Virus genome (UHGV): UHGV-0202034
DNA from: a virus
Strand: one strand, 5' to 3'
DNA: 46,913 nt
Part shown: positions 6,437 through 12,203 of the stretch, piece by piece
How positions within the stretch are numbered: position 1 is the first letter of the stretch
Layout of the letters: each line of letters opens with the position of its first letter
The notes under the pieces: model-generated
Seen by the model: only the letters and a program-made list of their open reading frames with translations
Told to the model about the DNA's origin: nothing
The model's database searches: none
Program-made: the position numbers and the translations under genes

Positions 6437-6784
6437 CTACATGGACTTTATTTTCCGAAGCATAGAATCATAGACTTTTCGGTTCACAAGCGATAATGTG
6501 TCCATAAGTTCATCAACGACCGCCCAAGCCCTTGCCGGGTCTTTCCCGGCTACCGCAAGTAAAAAATCACTGTCCCCGTACTCGCCCACGGTAGCCGGTT
6601 CTGCGGTCACAGGGGCGGGAGCGCCGGAGTAGCAACCCACATACCTACCGCCGTCGCCCCGTTCCTCCTCCTGCATCTTGTCGCGTATCACATAAAGATC
6701 TGCCAGTTTGGCATAATTGGGATAGCTGGATTCCTCATATTCCAGCCGCGCTATCTCCTTGCGGATCTCGGCTTTATCCAGCAT
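6437..6784 (-). CDS. hypothetical protein, last gene of post-lysis operon
   Basis: 115 aa, RBS. Confidence 0.75.
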   Translation of the reverse strand: MLDKAEIRKEIARLEYEESSYPNYAKLADLYVIRDKMQEEERGDGGRYVGCYSGAPAPVTAEPATVGEYGDSDFLLAVAGKDPARAWAVVDELMDTLSLVNRKVYDSMLRKIKSM

Positions 6785-6796
6785 ATCATATCCCCC

Positions 6797-7168
6797 TTAT
6801 GCCCGCTCGATCTGCTCCATGCAGCGGCGGATCGCTTCGCGGGTCTTATCGTCGTCCGCGTCGCGCATCATATCGTCCAGTTGCGCGCGCATATGCTCGC
6901 GGGCATCAGCGCGGGTATATCGGCCCATTGCGTCACGGCGGCGGCCACGGTAAGAGCTGCCGCGGCCGTAAGTACCGCGCATATCCGCCTCCCACTCGCC
7001 ATCGCGGGAATAGCCGCCGTCTTCAGCCATCTCGATCTTGTAGGTATTCTTGATGGAGCTGGTCAACTTCTGGATCGCGTCGAGGTCGCCTGCGGACATT
7101 TCCCGCTTCTCGGCAATTTCGTCCAGCTCTTTGCAGAGCATTTCGCGGAGATTCCTCAGATCATACAT
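6797..7168 (-). CDS. hypothetical helical protein with Gly/Arg/Tyr-rich linker
   Basis: GGAGG RBS; GRRRDAMGRY segment. Confidence 0.75.
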   Translation of the reverse strand: MYDLRNLREMLCKELDEIAEKREMSAGDLDAIQKLTSSIKNTYKIEMAEDGGYSRDGEWEADMRGTYGRGSSYRGRRRDAMGRYTRADAREHMRAQLDDMMRDADDDKTREAIRRCMEQIERA

Positions 7169-7182
7169 ATTGCTTCCTCCTT

Positions 7183-7605
7183 TCATGCTACGCGCTCGAC
7201 GGTAAGATTGCTGTTTGCAAAATTAACCGTTTGCGTGCTGGTGTTCCGCATACCTACCGTCAGGCAGCAGCCTCTCGGCACGCTCACCTGTGCGGATACA
7301 TAAACGTTGAAGTAGTTTTCTACCGCTGCCGGTGTCACAGTCGCCGTCGCGCTTGCCAGGGCTTCACCGTTGATGGCAAGTGCGGCCGTGATCGCCTCGA
7401 CCGTGCCGCCGGTTGGAATTGCGATGTTGCCGCCGTAGGAGACTTTGAAAACTGCTCTACACTGATTCGTCAGCCCGCGCAGCGTGATCAGGCCGCTGCC
7501 CTCGCGGTGAACGATGCACGGCTTGCTGCTCACTGCCGTTTCCGCCAGCGGGACGTTCTGCCCGGCGGCGACGCCGACGATGTTGGAATTCGTAAACTCA
7601 GCCAA
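7183..7605 (-). CDS. beta-sandwich protein (BclA-CTD/C1q-like by inference)
   Basis: alternating beta pattern, ends NSNLTVERVA; TTG start uncertain. Confidence 0.6.
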   Translation of the reverse strand: MAEFTNSNIVGVAAGQNVPLAETAVSSKPCIVHREGSGLITLRGLTNQCRAVFKVSYGGNIAIPTGGTVEAITAALAINGEALASATATVTPAAVENYFNVYVSAQVSVPRGCCLTVGMRNTSTQTVNFANSNLTVERVA

Positions 7606-7822
7606 TTCCAAACACCCCGCTTCCCGAATTGCCTGCTTTGCAGTAGTTCAAAATCGGCTCCATCGCCGTCTTCATCGCCTCTGCGCAGCTCGGCTGCTCC
7701 ATTTCGTCCACCGTTTTCAGGATACAGGCGTATGTGTAGAGATCCGTGATGTTCATCTTGTACAGATCCACGCCCATCAGGTGATCGATAAATTTCTTCT
7801 TGAGTTCCTTATATGTTGCCAT
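7598..7822 (-). CDS. small hypothetical protein
   Basis: 74 aa, GAAAGGA RBS. Confidence 0.6.
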   Translation of the reverse strand: MATYKELKKKFIDHLMGVDLYKMNITDLYTYACILKTVDEMEQPSCAEAMKTAMEPILNYCKAGNSGSGVFGIG

Positions 7823-7837
7823 AAAATCATTCCTTTC

Positions 7838-7876
7838 AAAAAAAAAATACAGCGGCGGGACGATTGCCCCGCCGCG
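7838..7876 (-). terminator. hairpin plus T10 tract after the 273 aa gene
   Basis: GCGGCGGG..CCCGCCGC hairpin. Confidence 0.55.
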
Positions 7877-7949: not shown

Positions 7950-8771
7950 TTACGCGCAGTTGCCGCAGCCGTAGTTGTAGCCGCTGTTGCATCCTGCGTA
8001 CTGGTACGGGGCCGGAACGCTGAATGCCGGAACCGGGCGCGGGTTGTAATACGCCAACTGCCCGCTCACGTAGTTACGCAGATCGAGCGTCTGAGCGTTC
8101 TGGCTTGCCGCAAGCTGCGCAACAAAGAGCTGCTGGTTCTGCTCGGCGATCTTCGCGTCCTTCGCCGCAAGCTCCTGCGCCGTCAGACGCTGGTCGATGC
8201 TGCGGAAGCCGCAGTTCATGGCGTCGATGATGTCGCGGGTGGTGTTCTGCACGGTGTTGCGGGTGTCGCACGCCTGCGTCGCCATGTCATAGCGCACCTG
8301 GGCGATTGCAGCGCGGTTTTCGCAGCAGCACTCCTGTGCCTGCATCGCCATGTTGTTCAGCTGCTGCATAAGCGCAGCCTGCTGATTGCAACGGGAAAGC
8401 TCGGCGGACTGGAAGCCAGTGTTCATGTTCTGATTGACACCGGCGAAACCGTTCAGCAACGTAGTGTTCATTGCGTAAAATCCGTCGCAAAGACCCTGCT
8501 GGGTAATTTCGCCCTTACGCTCGAGTGTGGACGCCGCGCTGTCAATCTGCCTCTGAAGCGTAGCAAAGTCACTTGCAAGAACATAGTTGTCCGCAGCGCC
8601 GCTGCCATTATTGCCGCCCCAACCGTTCCGATTCCACCCCATCAGAACAATGAAGAACAGAATAATCCACCAGCCGTTTCCATCTCCGAAGCCGCCAAAG
8701 CCGCCGCCATTCATTGCGCCAGCAGGTGCAACGGGCATCGTGGTCTGAATCCCACCATCTGTAAGAGACAT
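7950..8771 (-). CDS. Gly-rich hydrophobic N-terminus plus long coiled-coil protein with CCC motif
   Basis: GFGGFGDGNGWWIILFFIVLMGW; Gln/Asn-rich heptads; ECCCE. Confidence 0.8.
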   Translation of the reverse strand: MSLTDGGIQTTMPVAPAGAMNGGGFGGFGDGNGWWIILFFIVLMGWNRNGWGGNNGSGAADNYVLASDFATLQRQIDSAASTLERKGEITQQGLCDGFYAMNTTLLNGFAGVNQNMNTGFQSAELSRCNQQAALMQQLNNMAMQAQECCCENRAAIAQVRYDMATQACDTRNTVQNTTRDIIDAMNCGFRSIDQRLTAQELAAKDAKIAEQNQQLFVAQLAASQNAQTLDLRNYVSGQLAYYNPRPVPAFSVPAPYQYAGCNSGYNYGCGNCA

Positions 8772-8943: not shown

Positions 8944-9789
8944 ATGCCGTATAGAGATAAGGGATATTACGAGAAAAAGCATCAATCGCTAATTGGTCAA
9001 AAGTTCAATCGATTAACAATTTTGAGCATTTGGAAAAACAAAGAATCCGGTTATTATATGTGCCGCTGTCGTTGCGATTGTGGAAACACAAGAGATAACA
9101 GATTGACATACGTTAAGAACGGCGGTATTAAATCTTGCGGATGCTCAAAATACAAACATCGACCACTTCCAAACAATAGCAGCAGCGTGTTTGATGGAAG
9201 ATCATCTCACCCATTGCATAAGGTCTGGAACGCCATGTTTGATCGCTGCGAAAATCCAAATAACCAGATGTTCTCTGTTTATGGAGGGCGCGGAATCTCT
9301 GTCTGTCAAGAATGGAGAGACTTTCAGAAATTCGTTGAATGGTCTGACTCTGTTGGTGGGCGTCCGAAAGGGTATTCCCTGGACAGGATTGACCCAAATG
9401 GAAACTATTGCCCTGAAAATTGCAGATGGGCAGACGACGAGACGCAGCAAAACAATAAACGCACGAATCAATACTTGACGTATAAAGGTGAAAAGTTATC
9501 GCTGTCCCAGTGGGCGCGTAAGCTCGGAATAAGCCGTTACGCCATACAATATCGATTCATGCAAGGGTGGTCTGCCGAGGATATATTGGAAGTTCCTTTG
9601 AAGCATCGGAAGGACGAATACCGAAGAAAAATATTGCAAAAAACGAAGTCTGGAGATATTGTCGCCGTTTATAACAGCCTTTCGGAGTTGCCGGAAGAAT
9701 ACAAGATTACATCTGTTTCTTCTGCCTGCAACGGGCATTATCAGCGTGATACTTACAAGGGCTATATTTGGGAGTACGCAGAGGGCTAA
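8944..9789 (+). CDS. HNH homing endonuclease-like protein
   Basis: GQKFNRLT, CRCDCGN, SLDRIDPNGNYCPENCRWA; AT-rich, opposite strand to neighbours. Confidence 0.85.
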   Translation: MPYRDKGYYEKKHQSLIGQKFNRLTILSIWKNKESGYYMCRCRCDCGNTRDNRLTYVKNGGIKSCGCSKYKHRPLPNNSSSVFDGRSSHPLHKVWNAMFDRCENPNNQMFSVYGGRGISVCQEWRDFQKFVEWSDSVGGRPKGYSLDRIDPNGNYCPENCRWADDETQQNNKRTNQYLTYKGEKLSLSQWARKLGISRYAIQYRFMQGWSAEDILEVPLKHRKDEYRRKILQKTKSGDIVAVYNSLSELPEEYKITSVSSACNGHYQRDTYKGYIWEYAEG

Positions 9790-9802: not shown

Positions 9803-10018
9803 TTATCCCATCAACTGCTGAAACTGTCCAGCCACCTGCTGCAGCTGATTCAACTGCTGCTGCGAGATTTTCCCGCTTCGCACCAGCTTTTCGATCTCTG
9901 CTTTTGGATCCCCCTGAAAGCTGTTCTGGAATTGCCGGAACTGCTGTATCATGTTCTGGAACTGCCCCATCGGGCCGGGCAGCTGTCCGCCGCCGAGGGC
10001 GTTAAACAGTGGGTTCAT
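9803..10018 (-). CDS. small Gln-rich helical protein
   Basis: 71 aa, GGAGG RBS. Confidence 0.75.
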   Translation of the reverse strand: MNPLFNALGGGQLPGPMGQFQNMIQQFRQFQNSFQGDPKAEIEKLVRSGKISQQQLNQLQQVAGQFQQLMG

Positions 10019-10472
10019 TGTCCGCCTCCTTCATCTTTCGCGGCCTGACGCTTGGGGCGGCCAGCTTCGCCACAAGCTCTTCAAACTCTCTGCGGGTCAC
10101 ATATTCTTCGCTCATGTCTTTTCGCGGCGCTGCGGGCGCTGGCGCGGCCTGCGCACGCTCTACAAGGTCGTAGGTCGTCATGGTCGGCTTTCCGCTTGCG
10201 TCGGCCTTTTTGACGTACACGACCGGCGCGTTCATATCCCAAAGCGTAACAGCATTGTTGGGCGCGACGATAAAGTCATTTGCCGCCTGCTCGTTAGGAA
10301 CCCAGATGATCGACTGGTTTTGCGGCTGCTGTGGCTGCGGCTGATAAGCCGGCATCTGCGGCGCGGGCTGATACTGCGGACGCATCTGCATCTGCGGCTC
10401 CTGCATCTGCGGCATGGGCGGCTGATTGTAAATCGGCTGCTGATACACATACGGCTGTTGTCCGAACATCAT
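10002..10472 (-). CDS. Gln/Pro-rich N-terminus plus globular domain protein
   Basis: 156 aa, coupled to neighbours. Confidence 0.75.
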   Translation of the reverse strand: MMFGQQPYVYQQPIYNQPPMPQMQEPQMQMRPQYQPAPQMPAYQPQPQQPQNQSIIWVPNEQAANDFIVAPNNAVTLWDMNAPVVYVKKADASGKPTMTTYDLVERAQAAPAPAAPRKDMSEEYVTRREFEELVAKLAAPSVRPRKMKEADNEPTV

Positions 10473-10852
10473 TTATCCTCCTTTGCCCAGTAGAACAGCG
10501 GGATCTCATTGCCGCTGTCCCATGTGTCGAAATAGTTTCCGTTCTCCGCACAGACCACATGACTGGACAGAGCAAGAACGTACACGCCGCGCGGATGGTC
10601 TGCGCAGAAATCCGCGACGGTGTAGCAGTCCGGGCATGTGTTCGGGATTACGTTCCGGGTAAAGCCCTGCTGCCGGAGGTAAGCGCTCCATACGCTGTTT
10701 GCGCTCGGCAGATCGCCCATGATGAGTCCTTGCAGGCACAATCCGATATATACCTCGTCCCAGCTCTTCCCGGTCGCCTTTGCGATGGCCCGGACGGTGC
10801 AGTCCCCGACCTTCTGCCCGGCGGGATTTGGATTGAAATAAGAAAAGCCCAT
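10469..10852 (-). CDS. putative papain/C39-like cysteine peptidase
   Basis: GDCTVRAIA (Cys), SSHVVC (His), DTWD (Asp); AAAGGAG RBS. Confidence 0.55.
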   Translation of the reverse strand: MGFSYFNPNPAGQKVGDCTVRAIAKATGKSWDEVYIGLCLQGLIMGDLPSANSVWSAYLRQQGFTRNVIPNTCPDCYTVADFCADHPRGVYVLALSSHVVCAENGNYFDTWDSGNEIPLFYWAKEDK

Positions 10853-10937: not shown

Positions 10938-11186
10938 TCAGTTTGGAAGACTGCCGGACGCAGCCTTCATCCGCGCCATGATCTCCGGCAGGCGTCGCTG
11001 TACCGTGGCGCGGCCAAGATACAATTCTGTTGCAACGTCCACTTGCGGGAGCTTGTCCACGAAGTAAAGCTGCGCGATCTTCTCATTTTCCCGGCCAAGA
11101 TTGGCCTGATAGATCACGGCCTCCATATCCTTGCGGGTCAGGCGGCCCAGCTCTGGGGGAAGTTTGCCGCGTGCCTGCGGCGACAT
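10938..11186 (-). CDS. small sigma-region-4-like HTH regulator
   Basis: LYFVDKLPQVDVATELYLGRATVQRRL. Confidence 0.7.
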   Translation of the reverse strand: MSPQARGKLPPELGRLTRKDMEAVIYQANLGRENEKIAQLYFVDKLPQVDVATELYLGRATVQRRLPEIMARMKAASGSLPN

Positions 11187-11199
11187 ACGCCCCGCCTCC

Positions 11200-11898
11200 T
11201 TACTTCATGGCCGCGGCCAGCTTCTTCAGGAGGTCGTCGCCGTATTTATAATCGGCGAGATATTTGATCGTGCTGTCCGCCAGCCCGGCCTTTGCCTTGA
11301 TCGTCTCCTTGGCCGCCTCGACGGCCTTGTCGACGGTTTCCGTATCGTATTCCACCCACGGGAGCTTGCCGTGCTTCGTCCATCTGCGGGCGTTGTACCC
11401 GCTCTTGGAGCCGATGTTCAGAACGGCGGTGATCTGCACGCCATTACCCCAGATGGGCGTACACTCAACGGCCAAGCCGTCTCCGATGTACAGGCCCCAG
11501 TGGCCTGGCATCCACAGCCCTTCGCCTGGGACGAGTTTGTCCCAGCCGGACGCGGATACGTCCCTGCACTTCGCGATCATGCCGTCGGCGGAGACGTCAG
11601 GGACGCCGTTCGCGGCGTATTTTGCGCCGCCATATGCCGCGTTCTGATTGCCGTTCCAGCCCCATAGAATGCCCTTCGTGAGGTTCACGCAGTCAAAGCC
11701 GAAATAGCTCTTGCCGATCTGCTTGCGCAGCTCAGACTGCTTGGCGGCTGTGTACCAGCTTGGATACTGTGCAGCTTTTTCCCGGATGATGCTTTCTGTA
11801 ACCGGCATCCCGAAGCAGCCCCACATATACACGGTTTTGCAATTCTTCGCGACGTCAATATGCCGCCTGACGAGCTCGGAGGCTTTCATAACGCTCAT
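11200..11898 (-). CDS. endolysin, NlpC/P60-like peptidase
   Basis: YMWG, FDCVNL, GHWGLYIGDG; follows holins. Confidence 0.75.
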   Translation of the reverse strand: MSVMKASELVRRHIDVAKNCKTVYMWGCFGMPVTESIIREKAAQYPSWYTAAKQSELRKQIGKSYFGFDCVNLTKGILWGWNGNQNAAYGGAKYAANGVPDVSADGMIAKCRDVSASGWDKLVPGEGLWMPGHWGLYIGDGLAVECTPIWGNGVQITAVLNIGSKSGYNARRWTKHGKLPWVEYDTETVDKAVEAAKETIKAKAGLADSTIKYLADYKYGDDLLKKLAAAMK

Positions 11899-12203
11899 GC
11901 CCGCTCGCTCCCGTACAACTCGTGGTGCAGCTGCAGCACGGCGGCCTCGATCAGCTGATCGATTGTAGATACGTCGAACCGGATTCCGTGTTCGGCCAGA
12001 AAATTGATCACATAGGCTTTCTTTTCCTCGCCGTCCGTTGCCGCGTAGAGCTGTTCCGCCGCTTTTACGCCGATCTCTACGTATGTTTTGATGGTTTGCA
12101 GTTTGTTGGCATCGATCTTGGTTTTGAGCCACGGGATTAAAAATGCCGAAACGAGCGCGCTGATGAGCGCGATCACTGCCGAGATGATCTGTGTGTAGTC
12201 CAT
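11895..12203 (-). CDS. holin (LL-H-like)
   Basis: N-terminal TM; VKAAEQLY..GEEKKAYV..IEAAV. Confidence 0.75.
   Translation of the reverse strand: MDYTQIISAVIALISALVSAFLIPWLKTKIDANKLQTIKTYVEIGVKAAEQLYAATDGEEKKAYVINFLAEHGIRFDVSTIDQLIEAAVLQLHHELYGSERA

Follow-up and report, generated by a model that had tools for sequence, protein, structure and literature searches.

The 273-aa product of a gene from a common gut-phage cassette is, judged by profile comparison, a distant homolog of CSP1_021, a protein of phage CSP1 with a published role in the suppression of lysis. No published statement of a link between the gut family and the CSP1_021 family was found, and we regard it as new. We propose tentatively, with a probability somewhat short of even, that the 273-aa protein is a membrane-anchored, self-associating coiled-coil rod, which would act as a brake on holin-driven lysis. 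Neither the literature on phrog_16490, hendecads, BclA, 9NA-like virions and antiholins, covered mostly outside subscription journals, nor that on CSP1 follow-ups, phage class I fusogens and the crAss spike yielded, among the papers listed, one on the rod family in gut phages.

The rod gene lies in a window (the whole stretch of viral DNA analysed, 46,913 nt) whose genes for terminase, portal, major head, tape measure, tail fibre, holin, endolysin and integrase indicate a temperate siphophage; close relatives of the carrier have mostly been binned with gut Clostridia. The minus-strand ORF, present as described in an earlier sequence-only reading, has a strong ribosome-binding site (Table 1). 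Most of the layout given in that reading is also borne out: an NGG at residues 21-23 is followed by a Gly/aromatic-hydrophobic stretch (residues 24-46) and a Gly/Asn linker (residues 47-59), the CCC motif is found in the middle of the protein, and the Cys/Gly tail covers residues 258-273. The CCC motif is conserved more than by chance, being invariant in the aligned homologs (an alignment of 95 rows without the broken or N-terminally incomplete loci L088, L120, L123, L131, L141 and L156) and present in 113 of 125 full-length-like representatives at 50% identity; a Pro-rich motif before the tail, found in 87/125 representatives, is a candidate docking site for the beta-sandwich partner encoded downstream. 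The family is very large: at least 7,739 of 8,000 scored candidates are homologs, and they form 1,213 clusters at 50% identity, with an estimated 3,100 or so stored IMG/VR stretches. The sole PHROG match of the protein is phrog_16490, of unknown function (E 2.8e-39), while searches of Pfam, NCBIfam and PDB sequences gave no match and a search of the Atlas returned unnamed viral clusters only. Residues 1-70 had no usable Atlas match, so that a likeness to small sporulation membrane proteins is unsupported. A terminator-like hairpin directly 3' of the rod gene recurs in 110/135 cases against 83/133 in a mid-gene control, a weak test of conservation.

Table 1. Features of the cassette and its surroundings in the 46,913-nt window, in order of position
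Feature	Position	Strand	Properties
Last cassette gene	6437-6784	minus	115 aa, no family match
Protein with helical ends and Arg/Gly/Asp/Tyr-rich middle	6797-7168	minus	~123 aa, phrog_28802
Beta-rich protein with conserved CC	7183-7611	minus	~140 aa, phrog_20016; weakly like the BclA C-terminal domain (E 0.15)
Optional ORF	7598-7822	minus	74 aa, in a minority of related loci
Terminator-like hairpin directly 3' of rod gene	7852-7875	minus	
Core rod protein gene	7950-8771	minus	273 aa, phrog_16490; N-terminal membrane segment, coiled-coil rod, CCC, Pro-rich motif, Cys/Gly tail
Pro-rich motif before Cys/Gly tail	7998-8042	minus	P244, P246, P248, aromatic 250, P255
Predicted coiled-coil stalk	8046-8585	minus	residues 63-242, mixed 7-/11-residue repeats
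CCC	8322-8330	minus	residues 148-150, invariant in 95/95; Cys148/149 in predicted interface
Hydrophobic core	8640-8672	minus	residues 34-44; acidic flank before, mostly more basic flank after
HNH endonuclease-like gene, inserted, outside cassette	8944-9789	plus	GC3 0.46 vs ~0.7
Met/Gln/Asn-rich helical protein	9803-10018	minus	71 aa, phrog_22984; this or a related family directly before rod gene
Gln/Pro-rich protein, cassette core gene	10002-10472	minus	156 aa, phrog_21718; in 74/80 genome-collection loci
Papain-fold cysteine protease candidate	10469-10852	minus	127 aa, phrog_3754, Cys18/His98/Asp109; optional in cassette
19-bp inverted repeat over protease-gene ribosome-binding site and start codon	10843-10888	minus	
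Sigma-70 region 4-like helix-turn-helix protein before cassette	10938-11186	minus	82 aa; weak matches below curated cut-offs
Endolysin adjoining cassette	in ORF 11200-12132	minus	probable start near 11898
Holin adjoining cassette	11895-12203	minus	Pfam Phage_holin_6_1

The long repeat region claimed as Gln/Asn/Ala heptads exists, but it mixes heptads with hendecads: the periodicity peaks at 3.5 in residues 66-92 and at 3.67 in residues 92-130, and GF/GY motifs are spaced by 11 residues in most of the counted intervals (127 vs 25 for the next commonest spacing). In aligned homologs where both anchors were found, Cys95 is separated from CCC by 20, 24, 31, 42, 46, 49, 53, 60, 71, 75 or 82 residues, and in an independent set of representatives the helical phase is kept by all nine distinct spacings (Rayleigh R 0.90, p ~7e-4), with stalk length gained or lost in steps of 7 or 11 residues. 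Judged from the sequences, this pattern is that of a continuous stalk of adjustable length, which in the 273-aa protein, if unbroken, would measure ~27 nm at 0.15 nm per residue. The model of the monomer is weak (mean pLDDT 56, pTM 0.22; helices at residues 34-44, 69-91 and 120-242), and a Foldseek search with it found no match at E<=0.001. A three-copy model of residues 25-273 reached scores of 0.63, 0.63 and 0.62, against 0.00 for three controls; a mark for this score is reached by 20/30 solved pairs and 1/23 single chains, counts that apply here only roughly. The model predicts parallel in-register i-to-i contacts over residues 63-207, is uncertain after residue 207, has a pLDDT of 72-73, and its runs have at least 53% of contacts in common. 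The trimer suggested earlier is thus compatible with the predicted parallel coiled coil, three copies being the sole number modelled; the prediction supports self-association without fixing the number of chains.

The N-terminal hydrophobic segment, also noticed earlier, is conserved across the 95 homologs; in the 273-aa protein it is a short hydrophobic helix flanked on both sides by Gly/Asn/aromatic tracts. The unbroken hydrophobic run counts 11 residues here and 8-13 in all of the homologs, and the flank C-terminal to it is more positive than the N-terminal one in 88/95 homologs and less so in one. A C-terminal membrane anchor was found in 0/95 homologs and 0/125 representatives (19-residue hydropathy >1.6, C-terminal part). 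By the positive-inside rule, which permits the side of the rod to be read from the charge of the flanks, the rod would be cytoplasmic. For CSP1_021 the N-terminus can be considered as well, pKT25 being a vector for N-terminal fusions. The available passages of the CSP1 study report that the two-hybrid signal of CSP1_021 came from pKT25 (PMC13577005), by which its N-terminus would be inside. A short re-entrant anchor would fit both a cytoplasmic rod and an inside N-terminus.

In double-glycine leaders, the cleaved GG or GA is preceded by a hydrophobic residue at -12, an acidic one at -8 and hydrophobic ones at -7 and -4. The leader of the 273-aa protein scores 3/7 on this consensus, and none of the 25 representatives of its own leader type reaches 5/7; the NGG is there as stated, but its GG is part of a Gly/Asn tract, with another GG at residues 6-7, and the leader is not a canonical one. 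Cleavage after the double glycine is therefore unsupported for the 273-aa protein. In the family as a whole, 50/104 representatives score at least 5/7, owing to a leader type other than that of the 273-aa protein, while 5.7% of shuffles do so, the score having been built after the motif was seen; in a separate subfamily with a consensus-like leader, 44/46 reach 5/7. Such leaders (L090, L093, L103, L106, L117, L143 and L151 among them) mostly end in GN or GR and sit ~8-15 residues before the hydrophobic core, and in the family at large processing may still take place by way of this other type.

The neighbouring gene encodes a protein with a predicted papain-like domain (pLDDT 95) and a Cys-His-Asp triad, in which Cys18 and His98 are invariant and Asp109 is near-invariant in 46 homologs. 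An assignment to C39 fared less well: none of the 46 family members matches Pfam C39 models at E<=0.1, a PDB sequence search found no match, Foldseek gave nothing at E<=0.001, and the best structure matches are tied between staphopain B (Z 7.4), Josephin (7.2), PCAT1 (7.1) and a C39-like domain (7.0), with rmsd 3.5-4.2 over 102-109 aligned residues. The C39 domains of PCAT transporters (ComA, PCAT1, 6mpz), Josephin and staphopain share the fold (Z 6.5-7.4) and the Cys-His-Asp triad with the putative protease; however, its identity to C39 is 7-15%, C39 does not rank above Josephin or staphopain, and unlike the PCAT domains it is encoded by a free-standing gene without an ABC transporter. Among 51 fully seen cassettes (out of 80 loci, the 29 with short flanks being left out), 27 have the cysteine protease, 12 have an HExxH protein, one member of which passes the Pfam Peptidase_M78 cut-off, and 12 have neither, so that a protease gene of one of two unrelated types is present in 39/51. 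Leader-like N-termini occur in 8/27 cassettes with the cysteine protease, in 6/12 with the HExxH protein and in 2/12 without a protease, five of the last 12 N-termini being unparsed. As far as gene content tells, the protease is a usual but exchangeable component, untied to the double-glycine leader. At loci that lack the cysteine protease, a metallopeptidase-like HExxH gene is the last of the cassette (L117:7929-8243, L125, L127, L130, L131, L135, L139, L141, L144, L157, and L113, L126 and L153, each with two copies). The inverted repeat over the start of the cysteine protease gene is kept in the close relatives L004, L041, L081 and L082 and is a candidate operator or translation switch.

In close relatives the cassette has a fixed gene order (protease, Gln/Pro-rich protein, 71-aa helical protein, rod, beta-sandwich protein, Arg/Gly-rich protein, 115-aa protein), while the core at distant loci comprises the Gln/Pro-rich, small helical and rod genes, followed by a member of one of two beta-rich families and of one of three Arg/Gly-rich families. 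One positional equivalent of the beta-sandwich protein matches Pfam BclA_C with E 1.3e-4, below the curated cut-off. A likeness of the 71-aa partner to STI1 domains was dropped, as two of its relatives have no STI1 Pfam match at E<=0.1. A lysis gene is present at a distance of up to 3 kb in at least 55/70 IMG/VR loci, which are close relatives and not independent events, and in at least 29/55 genome-collection loci, all of these counts being lower bounds with loci of <3 kb upstream left out; lysis genes also adjoin the cassette in the window and in the crAss-like phage cr53_1. Holins of four unrelated families are the neighbours of rod copies at least 60% identical, which makes specific binding less plausible. 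In Clostridium phage CPD1 and the coliphages examined the cassette has no adjoining lysis genes, and the end of a late operon is a common place for unrelated accessory genes.

Several further features of these loci deserve mention. A search for sigma-70-like promoters in the window region gave none above chance; in L078, L093, L099 and L143, however, the first cassette gene is preceded by a T-tract and, just before the ribosome-binding site, a TATAAT-like hexamer, which suggest an independent cassette promoter. The HNH-like gene of the window separates the small helical gene from the rod gene, a similar-looking ORF is found in CPD1 (L244:3125-3748), and gaps of >300 bp at this spot in 8/156 loci (L005, L018, L087, L089, L107, L109, L110, L123) suggest a recurrent insertion site. 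A helical gene with His/Glu pairs, ferritin-like by eye and without a Pfam match, is located 3' of some cassettes (L142:7223-7831, L159:7348-7968, L244:5415-5942). In cr53_1 (L243:2640-6440), where the region reads under table 15, a DUF7841 gene comes first in the cassette and is preceded by a holin gene and a lysis-regulator-like gene, and in a T5-like Salmonella phage (L247:3291-3889) a shortened rod copy without partner genes follows the tail fibre gene. A coiled-coil protein of Eggerthella phage PMBT5, in the available part of its description a 106-aa tail needle candidate, was set aside.

The homology to CSP1_021 was reached with a distant rod homolog as the query, which retrieved proteins of crAss-like phages and coliphages as well as of Clostridium phages, the last with E values as low as 1e-29. 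The coliphage family, phrog_9288, has 179 records, mostly from enterobacterial phages, and opens a block of four or five genes; GenBank CSP1_009, a member of it, is equivalent to 021 of the CSP1 study by size and order of the genes (3081, 708, 369, 531 bp). In an hhalign comparison, the gut family and the CSP1_021 family were aligned with a probability of 99.0% (E 5.8e-18, 101 columns, score 122); a reversed control scored 25, none of 60 column shuffles exceeded 19, none of 40 shuffles of 11-column blocks exceeded 60, and masking of all cysteines left a score of 90. All 33 family ORFs rank above the other 391 ORFs of their loci, CSP1_021 is the best match in a search of the whole CSP1 genome with the gut family (E 6.4e-8), one Clostridium phage protein matches both PHROG families, and pairwise BLAST gives 27% over 70 residues (E 2e-4). 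The homology spans the GFAG repeat, the CCC motif and the C-terminal part of the stalk, and the two proteins share the layout of a Gly-rich membrane segment, a long helix, a Pro-rich motif and a Cys tail. Both have one N-terminal membrane segment and no second; that of the gut rod is short and of another composition, being Trp/Ile/Leu-rich where that of CSP1_021 is of the glycine-zipper type; the homologs of L128, L129, L132 and L160 have a glycine-rich segment intermediate between the two.

Both genes are the first or the central one of a small accessory cassette. The gut cassette, however, also encodes a protease and two further proteins, one Gln/Pro-rich and one BclA-like; it adjoins lysis genes, and most of its carriers are phages that have been binned with monoderm hosts. 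No CSP1_022 homolog is detectable among the gut cassette families (best probability 3.6%), no tail-fibre gene adjoins the rod gene in gut loci, and in comparisons of gut and coliphage cassette partners 59/60 family pairs had a probability of 8% or less, no gut partner matching any gene of the CSP1 cassette above 8%. The 71-aa partner shows a weak likeness to the fourth CSP1 cassette gene (L249:5013-5297; probability 8%, E 0.004, 25 columns).

In the available passages of the CSP1 study (Kim and Ryu 2025, PMC13577005), plaques change from turbid to clear on deletion of 4,672 bp, and suppression is restored by 020, a tail fibre, together with 021 and 022, and by no subset of them. The three genes suppress lysis by cloned holin and endolysin, and the suppression is lifted by overexpression of the holin or by dinitrophenol, which collapses the proton motive force; suppressed infected cells die yet retain progeny, which chloroform releases, and phage without the 021 gene adsorbs and replicates normally (PMC13577005). 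CSP1_021 gives a two-hybrid signal with the holin, in one test whose described negative controls were empty vectors (PMC13577005).

The gut rod may do the same job as CSP1_021 by delaying holin-driven lysis, so that the infected cell would hold its progeny longer and release it gradually. Since near-identical rod copies adjoin unrelated holins, the membrane segment would act on holin oligomerisation or on general membrane integrity and not as a lock-and-key partner; the brake would be set or released by the cysteine or HExxH protease, while the beta-sandwich protein would form a cap at the C-terminal end of the rod. In favour of a brake are the fixed cassette, which mostly adjoins holin and endolysin genes, the homology to CSP1_021, the predicted self-association and the protease gene in 39/51 cassettes. 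Against it, that homology is distant and the two membrane segments are of different types, the cassette of several carriers is located apart from lysis genes, 12/51 cassettes lack a protease, and CSP1_022 is not detectable in the gut cassette, so the function of the gut rod is inferred. Antiholins such as RI and RIII of phage T4 and LydB of phage P1 are a near comparison, though Pfam, NCBIfam and PHROGs gave the rod no match other than a family of unknown function, and unlike these antiholins it has a much longer, cysteine-marked coiled coil and several partners. A single membrane segment and a proposed delay of holin triggering would be shared with these antiholins, and CSP1_021 by itself is without effect, CSP1_020 and CSP1_022 being needed as well (available passages of PMC13577005).

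The main rivals of a lysis-delaying rod are a fibre and a general guard of the membrane. Were the rod the stalk and the BclA-like beta-sandwich the head of a surface or virion fibre, serving adhesion or shielding on the particle or on the infected cell, one would expect the in-register variation of stalk length, the order of stalk and then head gene, and the weak BclA likeness of the head, as well as the in-frame stalk-head fusion found in four near-identical proteins, one of them on 11 contigs. We nevertheless consider a fibre fairly unlikely: some cassettes lack the head gene or have another in its place, the coliphage cassette has no equivalent of it, the structural module does not include the cassette, and the fusion may be an artefact, as the same search gave a portal-head chimera; neither IMG/VR nor the JGI metagenomes contained a match to its junction. 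These fusions (P0121-P0124) have dropped the Pro-rich motif and the Cys tail, by deletion or as an artefact. The likeness of the 140-aa partner to the C-terminal domain of BclA from the Bacillus exosporium is weak, the matches being below significance or the curated cut-off; unlike BclA, the partner has no collagen-like region and is encoded separately from the stalk. It is unlikely, too, that the rod merely stabilises the cytoplasmic membrane or bars the DNA of other phages, with delayed lysis as a side effect. Conservation beside unrelated holins and across monoderm and diderm hosts, the regulator-like gene before the cassette and, in the available CSP1 data, the lifting of suppression by a protonophore (PMC13577005) would suit such a guard, but no similarity to known exclusion or PspA-like families was found in Pfam and NCBIfam, and the rescue by holin overexpression and the two-hybrid signal with the holin (PMC13577005) speak against it.

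A module of lysogens for conversion of the spore coat or exosporium, to which a Cys-rich rod, a BclA-like partner and the many carriers binned with Clostridia might point, is highly improbable, since a crAss-like phage has a homolog and so do 179 records, most of them from phages of enterobacteria, and the hosts of these phages do not form spores. The class I fusogen of the sequence-only reading, in which the protease cuts after the double glycine, the freed peptide inserts and the trimer drives fusion, is very improbable. Like influenza HA2 and paramyxovirus F, the rod has an N-terminal Gly/aromatic hydrophobic segment resembling a fusion peptide, followed by a predicted parallel coiled coil compatible with a trimer; the papain-fold neighbour has C39 domains among its tied best matches (Z 7.1, rmsd 3.6, 107 aligned), the leader-like motif occurs in 50/104 homologs, and RefSeq names a crAss-like homolog 'spike protein/glycoprotein'. 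HA2 chains fill the sub-threshold match list (E 0.46-3.4), which explains the resemblance to fusion proteins and is probably also the source of the RefSeq label; however, these matches are non-significant, and it is the linker, not the hydrophobic core, that is aligned to the fusion peptide. Unlike HA2 and F, the rod has no C-terminal transmembrane anchor in any homolog or representative, no significant sequence or structure match, and no predicted fold-back hairpin or six-helix bundle, the monomer model having one helix over residues 120-242 and the three-copy model parallel contacts only. Between two fixed cysteines its stalk can be as short as 20 or as long as 82 residues, its own leader falls short of the consensus, the cysteine protease is absent from 24/51 cassettes, the type of leader does not follow the presence of the protease, and the window belongs to a tailed phage without an envelope. 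A DNA pilot or ejection protein is a further possibility, the H protein of phiX174 having a hydrophobic N-terminal segment before Gln/Asn/Ala-rich 11-residue repeats as the rod does. We regard it as extremely improbable, with the rod gene outside the structural module, broken copies in T5-like phages, a microvirus pilot matched by Foldseek at E 2.6 only, and normal adsorption and replication of CSP1 without the gene, as stated in the available passages (PMC13577005).

For a very large family that has no name in Pfam or NCBIfam, the link to a published lysis-suppression phenotype offers a first testable function of a common gut-phage cassette. The coliphage carriers Bas08 and Bas82 of the BASEL collection make the family testable in E. 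coli K-12; in the available passages of the BASEL paper the cassette is unmentioned. In its boldest form, which is quite unlikely and put forward as speculation, phages of at least three bacterial phyla would share one ancient and so far unrecognised lysis-delay machine, in which a cysteine-cross-linked rod holds the holin, a BclA-like protein caps the rod, the dead host becomes a reinforced capsule that carries the progeny and lets it leak out slowly, and an exchangeable protease serves as the release switch. If this were true, thousands of gut phages would have a dedicated stage of persistence and transmission. The link to delayed lysis is also relevant to the persistence of many gut phages alongside their hosts and to their poor plaque formation, a question raised for crAss-like phages in the available part of an earlier paper (PMC10136315).
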